DNA of 10,862 nucleotides from a virus, in UHGV virus genome UHGV-1695878; one strand, written 5' to 3'. Under the pieces are notes generated by a model. It had not been told where the DNA came from. It made no database searches and saw only the letters and a program-made list of their open reading frames with translations. A program made the position numbers and the translations under genes. Positions 533 to 10,862 of the stretch are shown piece after piece. Numbering within the stretch: position 1 is the stretch's first letter; each line of letters opens with the position of its first letter.

Positions 533-655
533 ATGAAACAGTTTCATAATGGCATTTCATCTAAGACATTCAAGAAAGATTATTCAATTAGTATTAGCTG
601 GACTGATTTAATCTGCGCTGTGGCATTTGGTCTGATTATTAGCATTAACTTTTAA
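533..655 (+). CDS. putative small protein, 40 aa, hydrophobic C-terminus
   Basis: ATG 533, TAA 653..655; MKQFHNGISSKTFKKDYSISISWTDLICAVAFGLIISINF; weak SD. Speculative. Confidence 0.25.
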   Translation: MKQFHNGISSKTFKKDYSISISWTDLICAVAFGLIISINF

Positions 656-700: not shown

Positions 701-946
701 ATGAAAAAGATTATCGCTGGTGTTGTTCTTGCTCTGGGTTTGGTTGGTGCTGCAAATGCCGAACAATATGTACAGGGTGATAGTGTCAAGCGTGCTGCCG
801 TTGCACCTTCTTTAAATCAACTGTGTACTGAATTAGCACAGGTTGCCGGAGTTGGTGACGATGACGACTTTATTACTGCGTGTGTATGGAGTCATATCGA
901 GGATATTAATAAACGTGATGCAAAACTAACTGGAAAGAAATATTAA
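701..946 (+). CDS. small secreted protein, 81-aa precursor with Sec signal peptide
   Basis: ATG 701 with SD AAGAGGAAA; N-terminus MKKIIAGVVLALGLVGAANA|EQ is a typical signal peptide with AxA cleavage site; mature part about 60 aa with two Cys and a DDDD acidic run; terminator hairpin downstream. Confidence 0.65.
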   Translation: MKKIIAGVVLALGLVGAANAEQYVQGDSVKRAAVAPSLNQLCTELAQVAGVGDDDDFITACVWSHIEDINKRDAKLTGKKY

Positions 947-962
947 TGACTTACTAACCAAT

Positions 963-999
963 GCCCCTATCGTTATAATACGCGGTAGGGGCGTTTTTG
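963..999 (+). terminator. rho-independent terminator
   Basis: GCCCCTAtcg...cgGTAGGGGC stem followed by GTTTTTGTTT. The loop contains TTATAAT, a possible weak promoter for the recombinase gene. Confidence 0.5.
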
Positions 1000-1011
1000 T
1001 TTGGAAATGGT

Positions 1012-2691
1012 ATGAAAACTAAACTGTATTCGTATATTCGCTTCTCGTCTATGCGTCAGAGTGATGGTTCGAGTTATGAACGACAAATCAGGATGGCGAG
1101 AGAGATTGCGGCAAAGTATGACTTAGAACTGGTAAATGATTATCAGGATCTGGGTGTATCTGCGTTTAAAGGTGCTAACTCTAAAACAGGGGCGCTATCT
1201 CGTTTCCTTGATGCAATAGGTAGATCCGTTCCTGTTGGTAGCTGGCTATTCATCGAAAACTTGGACCGTTTATCCCGTGCCGATATTGTCAGTGCGCAGG
1301 AGTTATTCCTTTCAATCATCCGTAGGGGGATAACCATTGTTACTGGCATGGATAACAAGATCTACTCGCTTGATACTGTTACCGCTAACCCGATGGACCT
1401 GATGTTCTCCATCCTTTTATTCATCCGTGGTAATGAGGAAAGCCAGACTAAGCGCAATCGTACTAACTCAAGCGCACTGATTAAGATTAAAGCCCATCAA
1501 GAAAATCCCCAGAATCCGGCAGTGGCAATCGAGGAAGTTGGAAAGAATATGTGGTGGACGGATACCACTTCCGGTTATGTGCTGCCTCATCCTACATACT
1601 TCCCTGTTGTTCAGGAGATTGTGGAATTACGGAAGAATGGACGTTCAACCGCCGAAATACTGGATCACCTTAACGAGACATATGCACCACCACCAGCAGT
1701 AAGCAACAAGAAGCATTCAAAATGGTCACGGGCAATGGTTGAAAGGTTGTTTCATACCCGCGCTTTGATTGGTATCAAGGAAATATCTGTAGATGGCGTT
1801 AACTATGAGTTAAAGGATTATTACCCTCGTGTTATTGATGACCCTACGTTCTATCACCTTAAGAAAAATATTGGTGCTAGAGCATGGAACTTTGGAGACA
1901 AGGAAGAAGTTAAACCGATCCCCCTGCTTAGTGGTATTGGCCTATTGAAATGTGATCATTGCGGTTGCGCTATGGTTAAAGTGAAGGGAACGAACAAACG
2001 TTCTGACCAGTATCGTTATACATGTGATGCGACCCGTTCACGTAGACTTGATTGCGAGCATCCAAACTGGAGTTTTCGAGGTGATCAATTAGAGAAAGCT
2101 GTATTGCAATTGCTGGCTGATAAAATCTGGATTGCTGAGGACAAGGCTAATCCGGTTCCGGCGTTGAAAGTACAGGTTGATGAAATATCACGCAAGATTG
2201 ATAACCTGATTGCCCTTTCTGCTATGACAGGAGCAACGAAGGAGCTAGCCGATCAGATTACTACCCTCAATAGCGAGCGTGAAACACTCTACAATCAGAT
2301 CAAGATGGCAGAAGAGGAAATGTATTCTGTTGACTCTCAAGGCTGGGAGAAGCTCGCAGAATTTGATTTAGAAGATGTTTACAACGAGGAACGACTAAAG
2401 GTCCGGTTTAAGATTAAGCAAGCTCTAAAGCGGATCGGGTGTAGCAGGATTGACAGGAATAAAAACTTGTTTGTACTGGAATACATCGATGGAAAGACCC
2501 AGAGAGTTGTAATAGAAAATTCAAGAGGAACGAGGAAAGGACAAATCTTTGTCGATTTGAAAACTATCAATGATAGGCAGATTCTGGAGAGTAACGGGCT
2601 TGTTTTGCATCCATGTTTAGACATGCTGACAGATAAGAACTGGAAACCAGAAGAGGAAATACCAGGTCCATTACAGGAATTTGGAATTTAA
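1012..2691 (+). CDS. large serine recombinase (phage integrase type), 559 aa
   Basis: ORF track starts at TTG 997 (MFGNGM..); I prefer the first ATG at 1012, giving MKTKLYSYIRFSSMRQ. N-terminal resolvase-type catalytic domain (Y-x-R-F-S-S..Q with presumptive catalytic Ser; ENLDRLSR), central recombinase domain, Cys-rich zinc ribbon (CDHCGC...YTCDATRSRRLDCEHP) and C-terminal coiled-coil region: the architecture of large serine recombinases. Confidence 0.9.
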   Translation: MKTKLYSYIRFSSMRQSDGSSYERQIRMAREIAAKYDLELVNDYQDLGVSAFKGANSKTGALSRFLDAIGRSVPVGSWLFIENLDRLSRADIVSAQELFLSIIRRGITIVTGMDNKIYSLDTVTANPMDLMFSILLFIRGNEESQTKRNRTNSSALIKIKAHQENPQNPAVAIEEVGKNMWWTDTTSGYVLPHPTYFPVVQEIVELRKNGRSTAEILDHLNETYAPPPAVSNKKHSKWSRAMVERLFHTRALIGIKEISVDGVNYELKDYYPRVIDDPTFYHLKKNIGARAWNFGDKEEVKPIPLLSGIGLLKCDHCGCAMVKVKGTNKRSDQYRYTCDATRSRRLDCEHPNWSFRGDQLEKAVLQLLADKIWIAEDKANPVPALKVQVDEISRKIDNLIALSAMTGATKELADQITTLNSERETLYNQIKMAEEEMYSVDSQGWEKLAEFDLEDVYNEERLKVRFKIKQALKRIGCSRIDRNKNLFVLEYIDGKTQRVVIENSRGTRKGQIFVDLKTINDRQILESNGLVLHPCLDMLTDKNWKPEEEIPGPLQEFGI

Positions 2692-2764: not shown

Positions 2765-3940
2765 TTAGGCAGCATCTAAGAGAGTATTAAAGTATTCATC
2801 CATTAAATCAGGACTGTCGTCATCAATACAGAAAAATTCCGGTTTATTGATGCCGTAGAAGTGAGTATGTAGCTTGAATGTATCGTCATCAAATACATCT
2901 TTCGGGGATACCCACATATTAGCCTCGTCCGGTTGATTGGTTAGGTAGTCATAAACCAGTTGCTGTAAGTGTGGTAACTCATCAATAGTCAGAGTTTCCG
3001 ACCATCCATCCTTGAAATCTTTGTAGGGTGCTGCATGAGTCTTGAAGCGTTGTTTTACTTCATGCTCTAAATCAACGGCTTTCCAACCATCCTCAAACTC
3101 ATGAGTAAAGATTAAGCGGTGAGTGAAGTTGCTCTTTCTGGTTTGCTCTCTCATTCGTTCTTCTGGTTTTCGGGTAGTGATTCCAAATTTAATAAATTTG
3201 TCATCTAATAATTGAATGTAGAAACTAGCCTTACCCTGATAAGTCCGGTTAGACAGTTGCACCAGTTGGTCTTTAATGCAAAGCGGACAAGTGAAAGAAT
3301 CAGCACATCTTAAATGAGATTCCCATTCGTGGTTATGTGACTTGCAATAGGTTTTAAATTTAACATCCTTTAGGTGTGGGGTGTTTATGGTAAATCCTTT
3401 GAAGATGTAAGGTGTAGTCTCGCAACGTGCATTGATGATTGTCTCTTTGTCCTTAATAACTTCATCAAAAGTCTTGCCACTTCTTACCCGTTGGGATTTT
3501 TCAGCCATACAGATTTTGCAATCAAAATCGAAATCATCTTTGAGAGCATGTAATAGAGATGGCGTCATGATTTGATTGTGTTCAGGGCACAAAACACGGG
3601 CTTTCGTTCTATTTCGCCCTTTCCATTCTCCTTGCCATCCGAGGAATTTCTTTCCCTTCTCATTACAACGAGATTCCATTTTCAACCATACAGCCTTTTC
3701 AGTCTGGAGTAACTCACCCCCGTTAGTATCTTCCAGTTTGCGTAATTTGTAGTCCTTATATTCTTGTGTGTCTAAATTGTAGATTCGAAAGTAAGTGTGA
3801 TTACCCTTCCACGGTAGGATAAATCCACCAAATACGAAAGCAGGTTCCAGTTTAGCGATGATTCGTTGTTGGTACTCTTCCGGCGATAAACCGCGAGTTT
3901 TCTTAACAAAAGGAATTTCGGCAGCGTAAGCAAGTTTCAT
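2765..3940 (-). CDS. Cys-rich protein with T5orf172 (GIY-YIG-like) domain, 391 aa
   Basis: ORF track start at 4051 is TTG; the first ATG at 3940 has a strong SD (AGAGGAAActactATG), giving MKLAYAAEIPF... Cys clusters (CPEH...CKIC; CKSH...CADSFTCPLC) and a T5orf172-type core FYIQLLDDKFIKFGITTRKPEERMREQ. Family assignment from motif recognition only. Confidence 0.7.
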   Translation of the reverse strand: MKLAYAAEIPFVKKTRGLSPEEYQQRIIAKLEPAFVFGGFILPWKGNHTYFRIYNLDTQEYKDYKLRKLEDTNGGELLQTEKAVWLKMESRCNEKGKKFLGWQGEWKGRNRTKARVLCPEHNQIMTPSLLHALKDDFDFDCKICMAEKSQRVRSGKTFDEVIKDKETIINARCETTPYIFKGFTINTPHLKDVKFKTYCKSHNHEWESHLRCADSFTCPLCIKDQLVQLSNRTYQGKASFYIQLLDDKFIKFGITTRKPEERMREQTRKSNFTHRLIFTHEFEDGWKAVDLEHEVKQRFKTHAAPYKDFKDGWSETLTIDELPHLQQLVYDYLTNQPDEANMWVSPKDVFDDDTFKLHTHFYGINKPEFFCIDDDSPDLMDEYFNTLLDAA

Positions 3941-3999
3941 AGTAGTTTCCTCTAAAATAATAAGCTCACTACTATTTATTAGAGAAAATTGTCTTGCTA

Positions 4000-4027
4000 T
4001 TGCATTCTCTATCTGAATGTGTATAAT
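4000..4027 (+). promoter_or_regulatory. sigma70-type promoter for the 189-aa/uvsW operon
   Basis: TTGCAT (4000..4005), 16-nt spacer, TATAAT (4022..4027); oriented toward ATG 4095, leaving a leader of about 60 nt with SD AAGTGAGGT. Confidence 0.45.
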
Positions 4028-4094
4028 ATGCGACCCTAAATCCCAAACCAACCATATTGAGGTTATGCCTATAAGTTAAAAAAGTGAGGTCTAT

Positions 4095-4664
4095 ATGATT
4101 CCAGTAATGGCTAAAGATATTGTTTTTACTCCTAAATCCTCCCGTGCTGCAACTCCATCGGCATTAGAACAACGCATTCTGACTCACATCAAAGAGAAGG
4201 ACTTACCGTTAGTCTTTCATGGCTTTCTGGGTGAGTTTAAAGGGCTTCATTCAAGAATTGCTCTTACATGTACCCGATGCGGTAATAGAGCCGACAAATC
4301 AGCTACTAACCTGCTTAATGAAGGTAAACGATGTGTTTGCTTCAATAGTGACTACTTTCAATATAAAGCGGGTGTGCCTTATCTCTATGTAATGAAGTCT
4401 GGGGATATTGGTAAATTTGGTGTTACAAAGTCAATCATCAAGCGACGTGTTAATCTGGGTGTACGCAATCCCGGTCATAACTTTGATATTGTCTTTGCTC
4501 GTGAAATGCCATCAATGAAACATGCTTTAGCCACTGAAAGAGCAATAAAGAGATTACTGGATGTGGGTATAGGCGGGATTGAATACGGCAAAACTGAAAC
4601 ATTCCACTACTGCAATAAATCACTAAACAATATAAAGAATATTGCAAGTGTGGAGTGGAACTAA
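4095..4664 (+). CDS. small zinc-ribbon + T5orf172 (GIY-YIG-like) domain protein, 189 aa
   Basis: ATG 4095 with SD GTGAGGT; Cys cluster CTRCGN...CVCF; then YLYVMKSGDIGKFGVTKSIIKRRVNLG...ATERAIKRLL, a T5orf172/GIY-YIG-like motif. Stop TAA 4662..4664 overlaps the uvsW ATG (TAATG), implying translational coupling. Confidence 0.7.
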   Translation: MIPVMAKDIVFTPKSSRAATPSALEQRILTHIKEKDLPLVFHGFLGEFKGLHSRIALTCTRCGNRADKSATNLLNEGKRCVCFNSDYFQYKAGVPYLYVMKSGDIGKFGVTKSIIKRRVNLGVRNPGHNFDIVFAREMPSMKHALATERAIKRLLDVGIGGIEYGKTETFHYCNKSLNNIKNIASVEWN

Positions 4665-6154
4665 TGCAAGATATTAAAATTCATTTTCAAGATTACAGTT
4701 TCGTTAAGGTTGATTGCTCTCCTTCCATCGGAATGGAATTAAGAGATTATTTCTCGTTTGAGGTTGAAGGGGCTAAGTTTAGCCCCCGTTACAAGTATTC
4801 CGGCTGGGATGGACGAATAAGACTGTTTACGCATGAAAATACCCTACCAATTGGACTATTAAAAACATTGGGTGTCTTCGTTAAAAATATGGGCTATTCA
4901 GTCTGGATTGACCCGCGATTGCTTGAGAAGGAAGATGTAACCAAAGACGCGATTAATGAATGGATTGATTCCTTAGAAGTGTATTCCGGTTCCAATAAAA
5001 TCAATCCTTACTGGTATCAGCGTGAAGCAGTCTTTCAGGGTATCCATAATCGCCGGAGAATGTTAGTTCTTCCTACCAGTGCGGGTAAGTCATTGATTGC
5101 TTGTATGCTGTCTCGTTGGTACTTAGAGCATTACACCGGAAAGGTGTTAATCATTGTCCCGACTACATCGCTAGTGGTTCAAATGAGGGATGATTTTATC
5201 GATTATCGGTTATTCCCTTATGAAGCAATTCATACAATGATGAGTGGTAGCGGGAAACATCCGGGAGAAAGGCTAATCACTGTTTCAACATGGCAATCAG
5301 CTTGCAAGATGCCCCCTGAATGGTTCAAACAATATGGAATGTTGATAGTTGATGAATCGCATAAGGCTAGTGCCAAAAATATTACCAATATCATTAACGG
5401 AATGAATCATTGCCAATTTAAGATCGGCATGACTGGTTCCCCGAAAGAATCAAAGTGCCATTTAATGCAGTATGTCGGGCTTTTCGGTGATATTTCTAAG
5501 ATCGTGAGTATTGACCGCCTGATGGAAGAAGGGCAGGTGACAAAACTGAAAATTAACTGTCTTTTCCTTCGTTATACCGATGAGGAATGTAGCGCGGTTA
5601 AGGGGAGAGAATATGCGGAAGAGATCAAGTATATTACATCTAACCCACGACGTAATAAGTTTGCTTGCAATTTGGCGCTAAAACTCGCTAAGAAGGGCGA
5701 AAACGTATTCCTGATGTTCCGCAATACTAAGCACGGAAAACTTATGTATGACGCGTTACAGAAGGTACACGACAAGGTTTATTATATTGACGGTGGAGTT
5801 AAGACAGAAGAACGTGATGAATTTAAGAAAATGGCGGAGGGTGACACCGGGATCATTTGTGTTGCGTCTTATGGTGTGTTCTCTACTGGTGTTTCAATTA
5901 AGAATTTGCACCATGTTATTTTCGGTCATCCAGTGAAGGAATCAACTATCGTTCGTCAGAGTATCGGTCGTGCATTGCGTAAACATGGTTCTAAGGATAT
6001 TGCAACGGTCTGGGATCTTATAGATAGCCTATGCATAATCGGTCGTAACGGAAAAGTCAAGCGCAAAAATTACGCGGTAAAACATGCACTTGATAGAATC
6101 CGCTATTATGTGACCGACAAATTCGACTATACAACTAAAACAATTGCTATATAA
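4664..6154 (+). CDS. uvsW: UvsW-type SF2 DNA helicase (T-even phage-like), 496 aa
   Basis: Start taken as ATG 4664 (ORF track begins at GTG 4655); GGAG 8 nt upstream. N-terminus MQDIKIHFQDYSFVKVDC plus SF2 motifs LPTSAGKS (Walker A), IIVPTT, DESH, MTGSP and QSIGRALRK. Colinear over its whole length with phage T4 UvsW as I recall it (MDIKVHF..., about 500 aa). Confidence 0.9.
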   Translation: MQDIKIHFQDYSFVKVDCSPSIGMELRDYFSFEVEGAKFSPRYKYSGWDGRIRLFTHENTLPIGLLKTLGVFVKNMGYSVWIDPRLLEKEDVTKDAINEWIDSLEVYSGSNKINPYWYQREAVFQGIHNRRRMLVLPTSAGKSLIACMLSRWYLEHYTGKVLIIVPTTSLVVQMRDDFIDYRLFPYEAIHTMMSGSGKHPGERLITVSTWQSACKMPPEWFKQYGMLIVDESHKASAKNITNIINGMNHCQFKIGMTGSPKESKCHLMQYVGLFGDISKIVSIDRLMEEGQVTKLKINCLFLRYTDEECSAVKGREYAEEIKYITSNPRRNKFACNLALKLAKKGENVFLMFRNTKHGKLMYDALQKVHDKVYYIDGGVKTEERDEFKKMAEGDTGIICVASYGVFSTGVSIKNLHHVIFGHPVKESTIVRQSIGRALRKHGSKDIATVWDLIDSLCIIGRNGKVKRKNYAVKHALDRIRYYVTDKFDYTTKTIAI

Positions 6155-6188
6155 CAAAAAAAGCGCCTCTAGTGGGCGCTTTAATTTT
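6155..6188. terminator. bidirectional rho-independent terminator between convergent genes
   Basis: AAAAAA-AGCGCC-tctagtg-GGCGCT-TTAATTTT between the uvsW stop (6154) and the stop of the minus-strand peptidase gene (6187). Confidence 0.6.
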
Positions 6189-6540
6189 ATCCATTCCATC
6201 TAGCCTTATAACCACGGCTATCAATGTGCGTAAAGGTTTTGTATTTGCCTAAACCATACTGATCGGGATATCTGCTATCGAGATAAGAGTGAACGATATC
6301 AGGAGAGACACCTTTCACTACAATATCAGCAGCCTTGCCCGTGATATGAATCGAACGAGAAGCGCCACCAACTTTCTTATTGTGTGCCGGACAACGGTTA
6401 GCACTGTTAATAACTACTGGTTTCCCGAAGTGTTCGCGTACATCCTCAAGAATTGCCAGTAATTCAGCGTCTACTGTATCCTGTCCGCACTTCCCACATT
6501 TGCATTCAAATTCTTTACGTTTGAAGTAACGAGAGATCAT
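6187..6540 (-). CDS. M15-family zinc peptidase (small phage-type cell-wall peptidase), 117 aa
   Basis: N-terminal FKRKEFECKCGKCG motif and zinc-ligand pattern H-x6-D ... H-x-D (SIHITGKAAD ... THID), typical of small phage Peptidase_M15 proteins; SD AGGGGGTAAT; no signal peptide. Confidence 0.75.
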   Translation of the reverse strand: MISRYFKRKEFECKCGKCGQDTVDAELLAILEDVREHFGKPVVINSANRCPAHNKKVGGASRSIHITGKAADIVVKGVSPDIVHSYLDSRYPDQYGLGKYKTFTHIDSRGYKARWNG

Positions 6541-6549
6541 ATTACCCCC

Positions 6550-6897
6550 TTAAAGGTATTGGAAGATATACCCAATAAAGCGCATACCCTTGATGTAATA
6601 AGGTGTAGTGCCTAGACATACCGCTCGTGTATCGCCAATACAATTGAAGTTGTAAGGATTAACTACATCAATCTCCTGCCCTACACGAAAGCGATACTTA
6701 GGACGTTTAGCGAGTGTCGCAACACAAAACACTAGCCCGTTACCATCATCGCGGATCATTTGCTTGAATTGTTTATGCTGGACTCTCTTCGCCTCAAAAT
6801 CATGTGTCATTGATTCAGGGCTAATGCCATTAATAAAAATACCGGAAAGCTGATCGACCGGATAAGTAGGAAATTCAGTGAAAATATTTTTAGCCAT
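6550..6897 (-). CDS. hypothetical protein, 115 aa
   Basis: ATG with SD TGGGGGTATAAC; tightly packed in a same-strand gene series; no recognisable motif. Confidence 0.6.
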   Translation of the reverse strand: MAKNIFTEFPTYPVDQLSGIFINGISPESMTHDFEAKRVQHKQFKQMIRDDGNGLVFCVATLAKRPKYRFRVGQEIDVVNPYNFNCIGDTRAVCLGTTPYYIKGMRFIGYIFQYL

Positions 6898-6935
6898 GTT
6901 ATACCCCCATAAGTTTCTATGAGGGTATTTATGGA

Positions 6936-7619
6936 TTAAACGTATTTCATGCGTGATTTAATGTGCTTGTTGATATGTTCAAGCATCATTACTTCGTTGC
7001 TTTCCCACGATCCTAGCGTCGAATAACGAGTAGAAATTTTATCCGACTTAACGGCAACAATTCGCTTACTCTGTTTCTGTATGCGTTTCTCTAAGCGACG
7101 TTTTGCCACCGCCGATCCATTCTTAGCGCGTTTGGTTCGGGATTTCTTAGGCTTGTACTTCTTCATGATAAAAGTCCCTTCCTTGTTCTCTACCTTGATG
7201 AAGTTGCCGTTTTCGATGTTACGCATCATCTTACCGCCTTTGATGGCCTTAATGTTCCCGTGGGAGTCTAAGACCTTGCCGTTAGCGATTGGAACTAGCT
7301 TATTGATTTTGCCACCATCGAAATAGTGTTTCAGATAGTCATCCTGACTGCCGATCTTCTTGTCCTTATCCCGTGCGCCCTTGATGAAGATTTGGTGTCT
7401 CGTCCCTGATCGGTTCTTGTAGTTGGTGTTACCTACAGCTTGCTGAGTCCATCGAGTAGGTCTATCAACATTCTTGTTAATCTTCTTCTGGAGTGCTCTG
7501 GAAGCAAAGATCGCCCCTTCCCCTATCGCCTTTTCGAATGTATCGGTTGCCTTTTCAGACCATTGCCGTAACGCTTTCTTAGTCCTTAGAGCGTTTCGTT
7601 TATTGGTACTGGTTGCCAT
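6936..7619 (-). CDS. hypothetical Lys/Arg-rich basic protein, 227 aa
   Basis: SD AGGGGGCTAAC directly upstream; strongly basic tracts (KKYKPKKSRTKRAKNG); no predicted TM segment; function unknown. Confidence 0.65.
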   Translation of the reverse strand: MATSTNKRNALRTKKALRQWSEKATDTFEKAIGEGAIFASRALQKKINKNVDRPTRWTQQAVGNTNYKNRSGTRHQIFIKGARDKDKKIGSQDDYLKHYFDGGKINKLVPIANGKVLDSHGNIKAIKGGKMMRNIENGNFIKVENKEGTFIMKKYKPKKSRTKRAKNGSAVAKRRLEKRIQKQSKRIVAVKSDKISTRYSTLGSWESNEVMMLEHINKHIKSRMKYV

Positions 7620-7620
7620 G

Positions 7621-7791
7621 TTAGCCCCCTAATAACGAAAAGACCCCCGCCAGTGTCCTTAGCAATTGTTCATCCACGGTCATAGCCGGGAGTTCAAGCC
7701 CAAAGGACGTTAGCAGAGGTCTAATAGCTACGTTATAAGTGAGGGCGACAATCAAGAGATAACCAAAATATTTCTTAAGTTTATTCTTCAT
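7621..7791 (-). CDS. putative small membrane protein, 56 aa
   Basis: Not in the ORF track. ATG at 7791..7789 with SD AAGGGGTG (7-nt spacer); stop TAA at 7621..7623, 1 nt before the next gene start; MKNKLKKYFGYLLIVALTYNVAIRPLL... with one predicted TM helix. Confidence 0.4.
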   Translation of the reverse strand: MKNKLKKYFGYLLIVALTYNVAIRPLLTSFGLELPAMTVDEQLLRTLAGVFSLLGG

Positions 7792-7809
7792 ATATTCACC
7801 CCTTTATTA

Positions 7810-8088
7810 TTATTTTTGTTTGAGTATGTCGAGAACTTGGTCAAATTTGGCGTCCATCGCAACCACTTTTTTCTCTATGCCGTGTAGTGTTTGTTCCATT
7901 TGGTAAACACGTTCAGCAATCTTAGTATGGTTATTCTGCATCGTCTCAAACTTCTGGTTTAACAATGCGTCGCTGGATTCCAATTTAGATAACCTATTTT
8001 CAGTTGCTAATTGATTTCGGTGAAGTCTCCAAAGACCACCACAAATTAAGGCGATAACACCGATACCGCCATATATAATTTCAGTCAT
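7810..8088 (-). CDS. membrane-anchored coiled-coil protein, 92 aa
   Basis: SD GGGGG upstream; N-terminal hydrophobic segment IIYGGIGVIALICGGLW followed by coiled-coil-like sequence; first gene of the leftward operon. Architecture resembles spanin/Rz-like or immunity-type proteins, but no homology is claimed. Confidence 0.6.
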   Translation of the reverse strand: MTEIIYGGIGVIALICGGLWRLHRNQLATENRLSKLESSDALLNQKFETMQNNHTKIAERVYQMEQTLHGIEKKVVAMDAKFDQVLDILKQK

Positions 8089-8138
8089 TACGCCCCCGAT
8101 ATTTTATAATTTAATGGCAGAATTATTTAGATAAAAAT

Positions 8139-8190: not shown

Positions 8191-10719
8191 TTAAGAAATA
8201 GAAATGCCAGTTGAGGCTTTCTTAGTTACAAGCACAGTCAAATCACTGATATATCCAATTGGGTTATAGTTGTTAACACCATCGCAAGAAACTTCAAACG
8301 TTAGCGTTACCGCCCCCTGTCCGGCTGGCATATCAATTACCCCACTGTACATACACCCACTGGTAGCGGTGCGGTCATATAGAACAGAGCCATTTTTCTT
8401 AACGATCAAACGGCATGTATCCCAAAGATCGTTATGTTCATAGCTGCGCATTGACCCATTGTGATGGATAGCTGGAATAATGATTTGTCGGTTAAATTTA
8501 TGGTCATCTTCAATACGCACTGTCAAAGTGCCGTTAGGCCAGTTGGCGTTTTTGTGCGGGAATCGCTTACCAACCGCTTTCACGAAGTCACCCCTAACCT
8601 GAGTAGCATCAAGCATACCCTTAATATCACAGCTAGAGTTAATCGTGACGTTGTTCAGAGTACCAGAATCAGCGGTAATATTTCCCCTGATCGTTGCGTT
8701 CATGAACGTAGCAGAGCCATTCTTGTTAATATGCCATCCGGTAGATCCGTTCCAGTTGGAAGACTGGATATAGTTACCGATTTTAGCATTATCAATTGCA
8801 CCATTTACAATCTTGGCATTGGTGATCGCGCCGTCCTGAATCTTCGCAGTATTGATCGCAGCATTGCCGATTTTAGCATTAGTGATAGCCGCATCATTAA
8901 TCTGGGCTGTCCCAATCGAGGCATTACGGATCATTGACCAGTCCATGTACACCTTGTTCCCTTCGACACCGAACGGAACAACACCCGCCGCGCCATCCTG
9001 CGGAGCTACCGCCAGTTTATCAGCCGTAAAGATGATTCTGGTTGGTTTAGCCGGATCATTGGTTGCGCTCATGTGAATACCAGCCACACGACCATCTGCA
9101 TTAACAGAAAGGTTGTATTTGCTGTTAATCGTCCCTGTCAGCTTATCGATCTTCGCTTCCGCTTCCTGGTTAACACCAGCGATCTTACCGTCCATTTCTA
9201 CCCGAACTTGTTCGATCTTAGTCGCGCTCGCTTGTTCGCTGGTAGCGATTACCTTTTTCAAATCGGTAACGGCTGCATCAACTTTCTTAGTAACGGTTCC
9301 GTTAGTTTCCGTTGTGATAGTCTTATGAAGTCGATCTAATTTGATGTCGGCATTCTCGCCAGCTTGAGCGATAGCATCAGCGATAGTTTCATCTAAGCGG
9401 TCTTGCAATCCGATCAAGTCCTCTAATGCTTCTTTGTCCTGATCGTCCCAGGTAATCGTAGATTTCATTTTCATGAAATACGGTTCAGACCAGACAGCAT
9501 CATCAGTACCGAAAATATCGTAGTGTGCCGCACGAAGATAATAATCACCGTCCGCAATATCAAAGGATGTATGACTAACGCTATTCGTGCTTACTGCCCG
9601 TGCATTAGAAAAATCCTGATTAGTTGCATACTGGATGATTGTACCCGCGTAATCTGACTCTAAAACATCACCATTCCAACTAACGAAAGCGGAGTTAAAG
9701 CCACCACGAGCGTTAAAACCTTTGATTGGTTTATGTTGTGGGTTAATCGCCACTAAACGCGCTGGGGCGCTCTGTGAGTTGTTATAGCCCCTAGCTGATA
9801 CTTCTACCGTCAATTCACGGGAAAGGCCGTTAAACTGGTTCATATCGAGCGTATAAGTCCATGATTCAGGATCGCGGGTACGGTACTGAATAGACTTACC
9901 AGCTTTGTTAGTGATCTTGATAATGTACGCATCAAACAAATCACTGAATTTATTCGTTTCGCCATTCACGACTACATCTAGTTTTTGCTGGTTTTCCCAT
10001 GCAATAGTAAGGTCATTACCTTTGAAGTAGTTCGGCTGGCTGCCAACGTTTTTGATTCGAATAACTGGAGTCGGTAACTCATAGGTAACAGTTGGATTCT
10101 GGTTAATCAGTTCCACCCAATCGGATCGCGCAATAATACCGAAAGCACATACACGATAATCATAAGACCTATCGCTTGCCAGTGCATTGATATTAAAAAT
10201 TTGCTGCGACGTCTGACCAGCTTTAATCCAGTTAGGTGATCCACTCACGCGGTAATCTACCTGGAAGCCATAACGGTTGAAATCTTCCGGTGCATCCCAT
10301 GTTAACGAGATATTTTTACCGTGGATAGTCTCGCCAGTTGCCTTAATTCTAAAGTTAGTCGGCGCTTGTACTGTCATTGAGTCCGGCAGTCCGGTCGGGC
10401 GATCATCTGGGTTTGCTGCATAGTTCAGATCGGTATAAATCTTGGAATTGTATTCCGTGGCGGTGATTGCCAGCATACCAGCGATACCAGAATCAATAGA
10501 ACGTTCAATCGCAGTAATACGCCAAAGGGAATTACTTAATTTTAATTCATCATGCGTAACGCTGATAACGTCCCAGACTTCGGCGGTGAATGCGTCGGTA
10601 GTCATGAAGCTGATAACCTGCGTTATACGTGATTTGTTGCGCTCTATGCTCGCCAGTTTATCAATCTGGGCTTTATCCTTAACAAAGCGATATTCTACGT
10701 CTTTAGCGATGATTCGCCC
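8191..10719 (-). pseudogene. lambda J-like host-specificity (central tail fibre) gene, 5'-truncated by IS1 insertion
   Basis: Frame open from 10734 down to stop at 8191..8193. The C-terminal ~170 aa align by eye with the lambda J receptor-binding domain ([16 protein letters not shown] vs lambda DMPAGRGNVILTFTLTS; [10 protein letters not shown] vs KKQALGISVV; [15 protein letters not shown] vs SNVTIAENCTINGTL); fibronectin-III-like repeats lie upstream. Only 842 codons are present against about 1130 for lambda J. The frame runs into the IS1 inverted repeat at 10720 and terminates inside it (TAA, complement of 10735..10737). The ATG at 10605 used by the ORF track is internal. Confidence 0.8.
8780..8929. 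repeat. five imperfect 30-bp tandem repeats inside the J-like gene
   Basis: Consecutive 30-nt units (gattttagcattatcaattgc.. / aatcttggcattggtgatcgc.. / aatcttcgcagtattgatcgc.. / gattttagcattagtgatagc.. / aatctgggctgtcccaatcga..) encoding 10-aa repeats of the form A-I-x-N-A-K-I-x-N-x. Confidence 0.6.
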
Positions 10720-10862
10720 GGTGATGCTGCCAACTTACTGATTTAGTGTATGATGGTGTTTTTGAGGTGCTCCAGTGGCTTCTGTTTCTATCAGCTGTCC
10801 CTCCTGTTCAGCTACTGAAGGCGTGGTGCGTAACGGTAAAAGTACTGCCGGACATCAGCGCT
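10720..10862 (+). mobile_element. IS1-family insertion sequence, left end (partial; continues beyond the window)
   Basis: GGTGATGCTGCCAACTTACTGATTTAGTGTATGATGGTG from 10720 is the IS1 left inverted repeat; the following sequence matches IS1 with a handful of substitutions. The 9 bp immediately outside (gattcgccc, 10711..10719) would be the target duplication if this is a simple insertion. Confidence 0.85.
10775..10862 (+). CDS. insA: IS1 InsA, 5' part (3' end outside window)
   Basis: GTG 10775; translates [29 protein letters not shown], the InsA N-terminus with its CPSC zinc-finger, a D-to-E variant of the K-12 form as I recall it. Confidence 0.8.

Follow-up and report, generated by a model that had tools for sequence, protein, structure and literature searches.

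A five-gene block of a ycdX prophage as a probable lysis module without spanins

Introduction

In PBSX/SPP1-type holin pairs, a coiled-coil membrane protein (XhlA) and a small holin (XhlB) are encoded upstream of an amidase, and in phage P2 the tail-completion genes R and S adjoin the lysis genes. Phage Mu encodes the ‘releasin’ gp25, an N-out/C-in protein that is the prototype of DUF2730; members of this family adjoin endolysins in Mu-like phages and include types paired with cytoplasmic endolysins that are not of the signal-anchor-release (SAR) kind (Chamblee et al. 2022, PMC9239132). About 15% of phages of Gram-negative hosts do without spanins, and the spanin-less cassette of coliphage phiKT encodes the disruptin gp28, a 56-amino-acid (aa) cationic amphipathic peptide without a classical transmembrane domain (TMD) (bioRxiv 10.1101/515445). 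LysPM1, a single-domain M15A endolysin of 116 aa, is Zn-dependent by experiment (PMC13461873). Here we compare these systems with a five-gene block in the virus genome UHGV-1695878, a stretch of 10,862 nucleotides (nt) analysed in full and called the window below. Our analysis suggests, with a probability of about 70%, that a temperate phage of siphovirus type, ~37 kb long and inserted in ycdX, has the block as a lysis module at the end of its late operon.

A compact block under purifying selection

The five open reading frames (ORFs), named here by the length of their products, and the signals around them are as follows.

g92: 8088-7810, minus strand, 92 aa
g56: 7791-7621, minus strand, 56 aa
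g227: 7619-6936, minus strand, 227 aa
g115: 6897-6550, minus strand, 115 aa
g117: 6540-6187, minus strand, 117 aa, last in the block
Shine–Dalgarno G-runs, minus strand: 8097-8093 GGGGG (g92), 7802-7799 GGGG (g56), 7629-7625 GGGGG (g227), 6908-6904 GGGGG (g115), 6549-6545 GGGGG (g117)
Terminator-like hairpin: 8173-8138, minus strand, between the tail-tip gene and g92, 16-pair stem with a T-run
Bidirectional terminator hairpin: 6182-6160, both strands, 8-9 pairs with T-runs on either side

This layout reproduces the coordinates of the preliminary description, which had reported five packed same-strand ORFs with gaps of 1 to 38 nt (18, 1, 38 and 9 nt between successive ORFs from g92 to g117), a G-rich Shine–Dalgarno site ahead of each gene and terminators at both ends. 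A G-run lies 4-8 nt upstream of the start codon in all five genes. The signal resides in this presence at every start and not in the number of patterns, the loose pattern GGGG-N4-10-ATG being far from rare (11 occurrences in the window against 5.5 expected, a count reached by 9 of 200 shuffles). All five ORFs are under purifying selection, with ratios of nonsynonymous to synonymous substitution rates (dN/dS) of 0.03-0.23 across relatives at several levels of divergence, and all five are real genes, presumably co-transcribed. Among them is g56, whose proposal as a gene in the preliminary description is borne out by a dN/dS of 0.11-0.21 against four relatives, by its RefSeq annotation (WP_001406248.1) and by the occurrence of the exact protein on at least 1000 contigs.

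The hairpin at 8173-8138 is kept in E. coli, in one further relative and in Providencia, where a TAA/TTA to TAT/ATA change is compensatory; the one at 6182-6160 is common to the block and to a convergent UvsW-type helicase gene. Directly downstream of the first hairpin lies an AT-rich block (CTAAATAATTCTGCCA..TTAAAT; 8089-8137, minus strand) that is conserved from E. coli to Providencia at a variable distance from the start codon and could be the binding site of a phage late regulator. Upstream of g92, no sigma-70 promoter with proper spacing was found.

A probable M15A endolysin in an exchangeable slot

The function of the block is most clearly indicated by its last gene. The g117 protein matches the Pfam family PF08291 (Peptidase_M15_3) with 102.3 bits (cut-off 23.2; E value 2e-29) over profile positions 2-108 of 108, matches phrog_894 ‘endolysin’ at 7e-44, and is 63-66% identical to annotated endolysins of Proteus, Pectobacterium, Salmonella and Escherichia podophages. 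Its zinc motif S63-I-H65-I-T-G68-K-A70-A-D72 (SxHxxGxAxD) and the segment F103-T-H105-I-D107 are intact, R49 and Y100 are further conserved residues, and H65 and D72 align to the corresponding motif region of 1LBU. Together, S63xH65xxG68xA70xD72, F103xH105, R49, Y100 and D107 are the residues defined for LysPM1 (PMC13461873). The zinc ligands that the preliminary description wished to see checked (SxHxxGxAxD, FxH and D107) are thus in place. Its description of the last product as an M15 peptidase without a signal also holds, given the PF08291 match and the lack of any hydrophobic N-terminal segment in g117 (maximum KD19 0.68). On sequence criteria, g117 is a cytoplasmic single-domain zinc peptidase of MEROPS subfamily M15A. 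Its identification as an endolysin is well supported by family, motifs and context, from which we infer muralytic activity and a role in lysis.

Like the M15A endolysins with which we compared it (LysPM1 of Proteus phage Homer, the phage ST79 endolysin, and those of Proteus Pm5460/PM93, Pectobacterium PP1 and Salmonella BP12B), g117 belongs to a group of 116-117-aa single-domain enzymes with intact SxHxxGxAxD and (W/F)xH motifs and without a signal sequence. By contrast, it comes from a temperate siphovirus-type prophage whereas those relatives come from phiKMV/SP6-like podophages, and the lysis genes around it are unrelated to those that surround the podophage enzymes.

Relatives of the block are denoted below by locus numbers, L009 being the prophage of E. 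coli 14EC007 and L001 Escherichia phage DCP80 (PQ671644.1). Distant relatives keep the order of the tail-tip gene J, a protein of about 100 aa with a TMD and a coiled coil, a membrane protein of about 56 aa, a basic protein of about 180-240 aa, a protein of about 100-117 aa and a lysin. The lysin in the fifth slot is a Peptidase_M15_3 in the window, L010 and L017, a Peptidase_M15_4 in L018 and L023, and a T4-type Phage_lysozyme in L020 and DCP80. Such a non-orthologous swap among muralytic folds at a fixed position is the behaviour of an endolysin, and it speaks against readings of the block as an exclusion function, an abortive-infection system or a source of entry lysin. Signal or SAR segments are absent from all three enzyme types, which would therefore remain in the cytoplasm and need a holin. 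In E. coli 14EC007, full annotation of the sister prophage showed no further muralytic gene, and PHROG scans of all its other genes without an assignment revealed no other lysin, holin or spanin. The block is accordingly the only lysis module found in the prophage family, which upholds the ‘lysis-type cassette’ of the preliminary description; its qualifier ‘residual’ falls away, as its synteny extends from E. coli through Providencia to relatives further removed.

The preliminary description had also considered a defence or exclusion function of the prophage in the lysogen, either an abortive-infection ‘lysis switch’ or a cell-wall-remodelling system. The block is indeed bracketed by terminators in the manner of a moron, it adjoins an accessory region rich in T-even-derived genes (UvsW and endonuclease-like ORFs), and g92 has a weak PADLOC match to RTasRmuC (E value 0.002) in its coiled-coil region. 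PADLOC nevertheless returned no meaningful match for the five proteins, and nothing at all for the four besides g92; the prophage would have no endolysin left; the place of the last gene is taken in turn by three muralytic folds that are unrelated to one another; and in orientation and location the block fits the late structural operon, its genes having a GC content of 38-44%, similar to the 41.9% of the window. We therefore regard a defence function as very improbable.

Equally improbable, in our estimate, is that g117 acts as a virion-associated entry lysin and the genes upstream of it encode tail accessory proteins. It is a free-standing 117-aa catalytic domain without a tail-attachment domain; its closest relatives, at 66% identity, are annotated podophage endolysins, and a 116-aa member of the family has been verified experimentally. 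The sister prophage has no other endolysin, and two membrane proteins precede g117. These points outweigh the location of its gene downstream of the tail-tip genes and the existence of siphophage tail proteins that carry M15 or lysozyme domains.

Two membrane proteins as a putative holin system

As the preliminary description had it, the block encodes a membrane protein with a coiled coil and a second, small membrane protein; each has a single TMD. In g92, the TMD (residues 4-20; Kyte–Doolittle (KD) hydropathy 2.0) is followed by a cytoplasmic coiled coil of about 70 aa. Its flanking charges are 0 on the N-terminal side, where the three-residue N-terminus is uncharged, and +3 on the C-terminal side, a pattern kept in all orthologs, and the positive-inside rule predicts an N-out/C-in, type I topology. 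The g56 protein has an N-terminus of charge +5, one TMD at about residues 12-28 (KD 1.6), an acidic loop and a short Gly-rich hydrophobic C-terminus, for a net charge of +3; its topology is predicted to be N-in and is conserved across orthologs. Both are small proteins with at least one TMD encoded near an endolysin, as holins are, and they probably constitute the holin system, perhaps as a pair; which of the two is the holin proper we can only infer. Matches to phrog_1296 ‘holin’ were obtained for the orthologs of g92 in L020 (2e-7) and L018 (0.05). For g56, the only family matched, and weakly so, is phrog_2024 (0.005; 1e-6 for the L020 ortholog), which has no assigned function.

The architecture of g92 is like that of Mu gp25, and sequence support for homology between them, or with DUF2730 as a whole, is weak. 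BLASTP aligned g92 and gp25 with an E value of 0.006 over 28 residues at the junction of TMD and cytoplasmic part; hhalign aligned the 11-member g92 alignment with a 7-member DUF2730 alignment over 66 collinear columns (probability 41.5%, E value 2.7e-4); and the L020 ortholog carries a precomputed ‘faint’ PF10805 match. The two proteins are of similar length (92 aa for g92, 99 aa for gp25) and have a single N-terminal TMD, almost no periplasmic part and a cytoplasmic helical domain of about 70 aa. Their flanking charges are 0/+3 and 0/+2, respectively, their junction motif GG-x-W-x-x-(R/H)-R ... (S/T)-E-x-R-(L/V)-x-x-LE is similar, and g92, too, is encoded within a few genes of an endolysin. 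Conversely, g92 falls below the PF10805 threshold, its phage is not transposable, and its gene lies upstream of the endolysin gene whereas that of gp25 lies downstream. The pairing with a SAR endolysin that marks a releasin is also absent: g117 has no SAR domain, so that releasing a SAR endolysin cannot be the job of g92.

The arrangement also recalls the PBSX/SPP1 type, in that a coiled-coil membrane protein and then a small hydrophobic protein are encoded upstream of a cytoplasmic endolysin, and the L020 ortholog of g92 has a weak match (2e-4) to an XhlA-type PHROG labelled ‘hemolysin’. The TMD is, however, C-terminal in XhlA and N-terminal in g92, the hosts of PBSX and SPP1 are Gram-positive, there is no significant sequence similarity, and two extra soluble genes intervene in the prophage block. 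A tblastn search with the L020 ortholog of g92 gave a single weak match, to a Streptococcus phage.

Two soluble proteins between the putative holin system and the endolysin

The two proteins encoded between the putative holin system and the endolysin are soluble. The g227 protein is strongly basic (isoelectric point 10.6, net charge +37) and has no TMD, and a net charge of +26 to +44 is found in every homolog. Relatives are few: a word-indexed search of 5.8 billion proteins gave 6 clusters and a HMMER profile search of 1.84 billion representatives gave 12 matches, most of them positional orthologs in the same prophage family that are 31-42% identical to g227, compared with 58-97% for the flanking genes. 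At the nucleotide level, the flanks align with L014, L017 and L010 and the alignment is lost exactly at the g227 borders; g227 is thus the hypervariable gene of the cassette, with a dN/dS of 0.12-0.13. A frameshifted 97-aa truncation of g227 occurs on more than 50 E. coli contigs (P0074, P0115, P0125), which suggests that the gene either decays in some lysogens or contains a slippery run. None of 14 members of the g227 family has a Pfam match at an E value of 0.1 or below, tblastn of g227 gave no match, and the AlphaFold2 model (mean predicted local distance difference test score, pLDDT, 44) is unusable.

The g115 protein is modelled as a soluble small beta-barrel (pLDDT 72) with generic structural neighbours only and without a family match, and its gene always lies directly before that of the endolysin. 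PilZ barrels are its top fold matches; they are generic, at 5-14% identity, and g115 was rejected as a PilZ-type, cyclic di-GMP-binding protein. Both are conserved, cytoplasmic components of the module that may have a part in lysis, as accessory or outer-membrane factors.

A module without spanins

A scan of the window and of the 37.6-kb sister prophage for lipobox-containing ORFs of at least 25 aa, with any start codon and in any frame, found none; the two matches to the lipobox regular expression were both antisense fragments inside tail genes, and no embedded lipobox ORF lies inside the cassette. Because no lipoprotein signal emerged from this all-frame scan, the module is, on sequence criteria, spanin-less, with neither a two-component nor a unimolecular spanin. 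Rupture of the outer membrane would then be either passive or the work of a non-canonical factor.

Neither membrane protein of the block can be recruited as a spanin component. Weak PHROG matches to Rz-like families do exist for g92 (0.045) and its L020 ortholog (1e-4), both within the coiled-coil region; an i-spanin must be N-in/C-out with its coiled coil in the periplasm, so g92, with its predicted N-out/C-in topology in all orthologs and no lipoprotein partner, is not one. The g56 protein contains no Cys and hence is not a lipoprotein; its TMD, low charge and lack of Cys rule it out as a disruptin or an o-spanin.

The phiKT cassette offers the nearest comparison, as the spanin-less prophage block also holds a strongly cationic protein, g227. 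The likeness of g56 to gp28 is one of length only, g56 having a net charge of +3 and a real TMD, and g227 differs from the disruptin in being four times its size and in having a conserved folded N-terminal domain and no signal for membrane association. One can nevertheless envision that g227 and g115 replace the spanins, with g227 leaving the cytoplasm through the holin lesion together with the endolysin and destabilizing the outer membrane from its periplasmic side. We consider this doubtful, at rather long odds. Gene-precise swaps of g227 alleles between otherwise near-identical prophages, the start of g227 1 nt past the stop of g56, and the retention of a g56-like/g227-like pair in differently arranged phage genomes (the metagenomic phage contig L025 still has a g56-like gene adjoining its g227 homolog) are all compatible with spanin replacement without showing it. 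If true, outer-membrane rupture would come under holin control, which the phiKT disruptin does not obviously achieve. In a weaker variant of the same doubtful proposal, g92 would mark a second branch of DUF2730, found in non-transposable phages and acting with cytoplasmic endolysins.

Observations weighing against a lysis role

Several observations weigh against the block being a lysis module, or against parts of that assignment. A strong terminator stands ahead of the block and no promoter has been identified. The g92 protein itself matches neither PF10805 (at an E value of 10 or below) nor phrog_1296, and g92 and g56 have no significant match to a characterised holin family, Pfam and NCBIfam holin families included. 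In the sister prophage, the small terminase gene has as its neighbour the gene of a 94-aa protein (L009 8505-8789, minus strand) that has 3-4 predicted TMDs and matches no PHROG; it is a possible alternative holin or an exclusion protein. The prophage copy in the window is probably defective and unable to make tails, because an IS1 element cuts its tail-tip J gene. Furthermore, phrog_1924, labelled ‘minor tail protein’, is matched by 9 of the 14 g227 relatives (best E value 2.4e-33; 0.0029 for g227 itself), and in Rhodobacter phage RcCronus the g227 homolog directly precedes cos and the terminase genes and does not adjoin membrane proteins. The g227 and g115 products may therefore belong to the virion or to packaging, their genes simply happening to lie within the module.

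A mixed module of this kind would lyse by means of g117, g92 and g56 and would carry between holin and endolysin two proteins of the virion or its assembly, for example tail-completion or neck proteins, or proteins acting on DNA ends or packaging, in the way that R and S adjoin the lysis genes of P2. The members of phrog_1924, such as RcCronus gp44, share with g227 the motifs DRPTxFT and YLxxxF(E/D)GG...VP...YGNI and a strongly basic character, and one g227 relative matches phrog_27 ‘tail completion or Neck1’ at 0.0055. Their genes differ in position, that of g227 following the tail-tip gene and that of RcCronus preceding cos and the terminase genes. Homologs of g227 adjoin the terminase genes (TerS/TerL) in RcCronus and in L025, where the order is lysozyme (minus strand), endonuclease VII, g56-like membrane protein, g227 homolog, a 132-aa gene, TerS and TerL. 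In addition, the g227 family co-occurs with one type of head module (GpA terminase, a head-tail joining protein of about 160 aa, portal and a large capsid gene), and in the hhalign comparison with HK97 gp10 the N-terminus of g227 falls into the register one would expect, with P54 on the conserved Pro, at a level that is not significant.

Other results point away from a neck or tail-completion protein. The probabilities from hhalign for the g227 family stay below 1% throughout (0.07% against lambda Z, 0.08% against HK97 gp10, and 0.5%, with an E value of 0.11, against a 7-member gp10 alignment), and searching the PDB sequences, many solved phage necks among them, with a profile found nothing but a chance match to adenovirus pVI. 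No experimental basis for the phrog_1924 label was found in the paper describing those phages, and the label appears to stem from annotation. Alleles of g227 are 35-42% identical with gene-precise borders while their flanks are 86-97% identical, a pattern one would not expect if the protein had to fit conserved neck partners, and the top fold matches of g115 are PilZ barrels rather than neck proteins. We thus consider a mixed module unlikely, if still worth keeping in sight. The preliminary description had taken homology of the ORFs to ordinary tail-assembly proteins as a sign against lysis; the phrog_1924 matches touch on such homology, and the comparisons with lambda Z and HK97 gp10 do not reach significance.

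The prophage and its spread

Many E. coli chromosomes encode the exact 227-aa protein, and on them the block follows a 1217-aa lambda-J-type tail-tip gene. Downstream, on the opposite strand, come a UvsW-type helicase gene, two CapR/T5orf172 endonuclease-like genes and a large serine recombinase gene, followed by the host genes ycdY-ycdZ-csgG. The sister prophage in the complete E. coli 14EC007 genome is an insertion of about 37.6 kb that splits ycdX (NZ_CP024131.1, 2954219-2991802). Its head genes are, in order, those for the small terminase, a GpA-type large terminase, a head-tail joining protein, the portal and a 667-aa capsid-family protein; its tail genes are those for the tail tube, chaperones, tape measure, a pb9-like distal tail protein, DUF2163, DUF6950 and J, after which come the five genes. 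The window is thus the right arm of a ~37-kb siphovirus-type prophage that a serine recombinase put into ycdX. With its GpA-type terminase, fused protease-capsid gene, distal tail like that of gene transfer agents and T5, and serine integrase, this phage is not lambdoid in layout. The position of the block, which the preliminary description had remarked on as the place where lambdoid phages carry lom/stf/tfa or exclusion genes, is odd only in a lambda-centred view. The other features of the window are the following.

Tail-tip gene, 3' part: 8191..10719, minus strand, 843 C-terminal codons of a ~1217-aa lambda-J-type gene, with Phage_Tail_Tip and Ig_GpJ_C domains
IS1, left end: 10720-10862, at the end of the window, with the terminal repeat GGTGATGCTGCCAACTTACTGATTTAGTG beginning at 10720
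UvsW helicase: 4655-6154, plus strand, protein about 80% identical to RB49/Phi1-like T-even versions
CapR / T5orf172 / MUG113-type endonuclease-like genes (phrog_681), flanking UvsW: 2765-4051, minus strand, and 4095-4664, plus strand
Large serine recombinase, integrator of the ~37.6-kb element into ycdX: 997-2691, plus strand
81-aa protein with a cleavable signal peptide (AANA/EQ), between attachment site and integrase: 701-946, plus strand
40-aa ORF with a TMD, between attachment site and integrase: 533-655, plus strand

The gene upstream of the block, termed a tail-fibre gene in the preliminary description, is indeed adjacent, and it proves to be the C-terminal 843 codons of the tail-tip gene, which is interrupted by IS1 at 10720 and intact (1217 aa) in sister genomes. 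Over 10 kb the window is 98.2% similar to the intact sister prophage, up to exactly 10720. E. coli 14EC007 carries a separate IS1 between J and g92, and the chromosome CP142526.1 is an example with an intact copy.

The nucleotide sequence of the block is present, at 80-99% identity, in 55 of 5426 complete E. coli genomes (about 1%), and a nucleotide search against 50,697 phage records gave no match. The prophage family occurs in Salmonella and Providencia as well, and 26 viral contigs in IMG/VR, about 8-45 kb long, encode relatives of g115. A literature search on the ycdX prophage found nothing.

The only regulatory gene found in the element is Rha/antirepressor-like, with no repressor recognised, and no replication gene other than the helicase was recognised. 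The 40-aa and 81-aa ORFs near the attachment site look like morons. The CapR-type genes beside UvsW resemble the homing endonuclease genes that adjoin uvsW in T-even phage records. Among the further genes of sister prophages (L011, L014, L015, L017 and L020) are UvsW.1, UvsY fragments, T4_Cef, a Gp38-like adhesin and a NUMOD3 endonuclease or endonuclease VII. This temperate siphovirus-type element has repeatedly acquired pieces of T4-like genomes, for which homing-endonuclease traffic and an anti-T-even function are both conceivable. DCP80 (L001, 10.9-26.3 kb) is a 141-kb record classified in Straboviridae that contains a siphovirus-type J gene and the same five-position cassette, interrupted by an endonuclease VII gene and by two ORFs, of 153 aa and 57 aa, that lack annotation; it is either a chimeric assembly or a real hybrid.

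Discussion

Under the lysis-module reading, transcription late in the lytic cycle would pass the hairpin after the tail-tip gene or restart directly beyond it, and the five closely spaced genes, each with a strong Shine–Dalgarno site, would be translated together. Folded and without an export signal, g117 would build up in the cytoplasm while g92 and g56 build up in the inner membrane, where, acting jointly or with one regulating the other, they would form the holin lesion. Through this lesion g117 would gain access to the peptidoglycan and cut the peptide part of the murein, and the cell would burst.

The function proposed for the block is ordinary, whereas its composition is unusual: a Mu-gp25-like tethered protein outside transposable phages together with a cytoplasmic endolysin, a tiny second membrane protein, two family-specific soluble proteins and no spanin. 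Should g227 and g115 prove to be virion proteins, the block would be an ordinary lysis cassette with two interleaved structural genes. The prophage family resides in genetically tractable hosts, and its compact five-gene cassette bears on how the outer membrane may be breached without spanins, on how DUF2730-like proteins may work with a cytoplasmic endolysin, and on what two soluble proteins may do between a holin and an endolysin.

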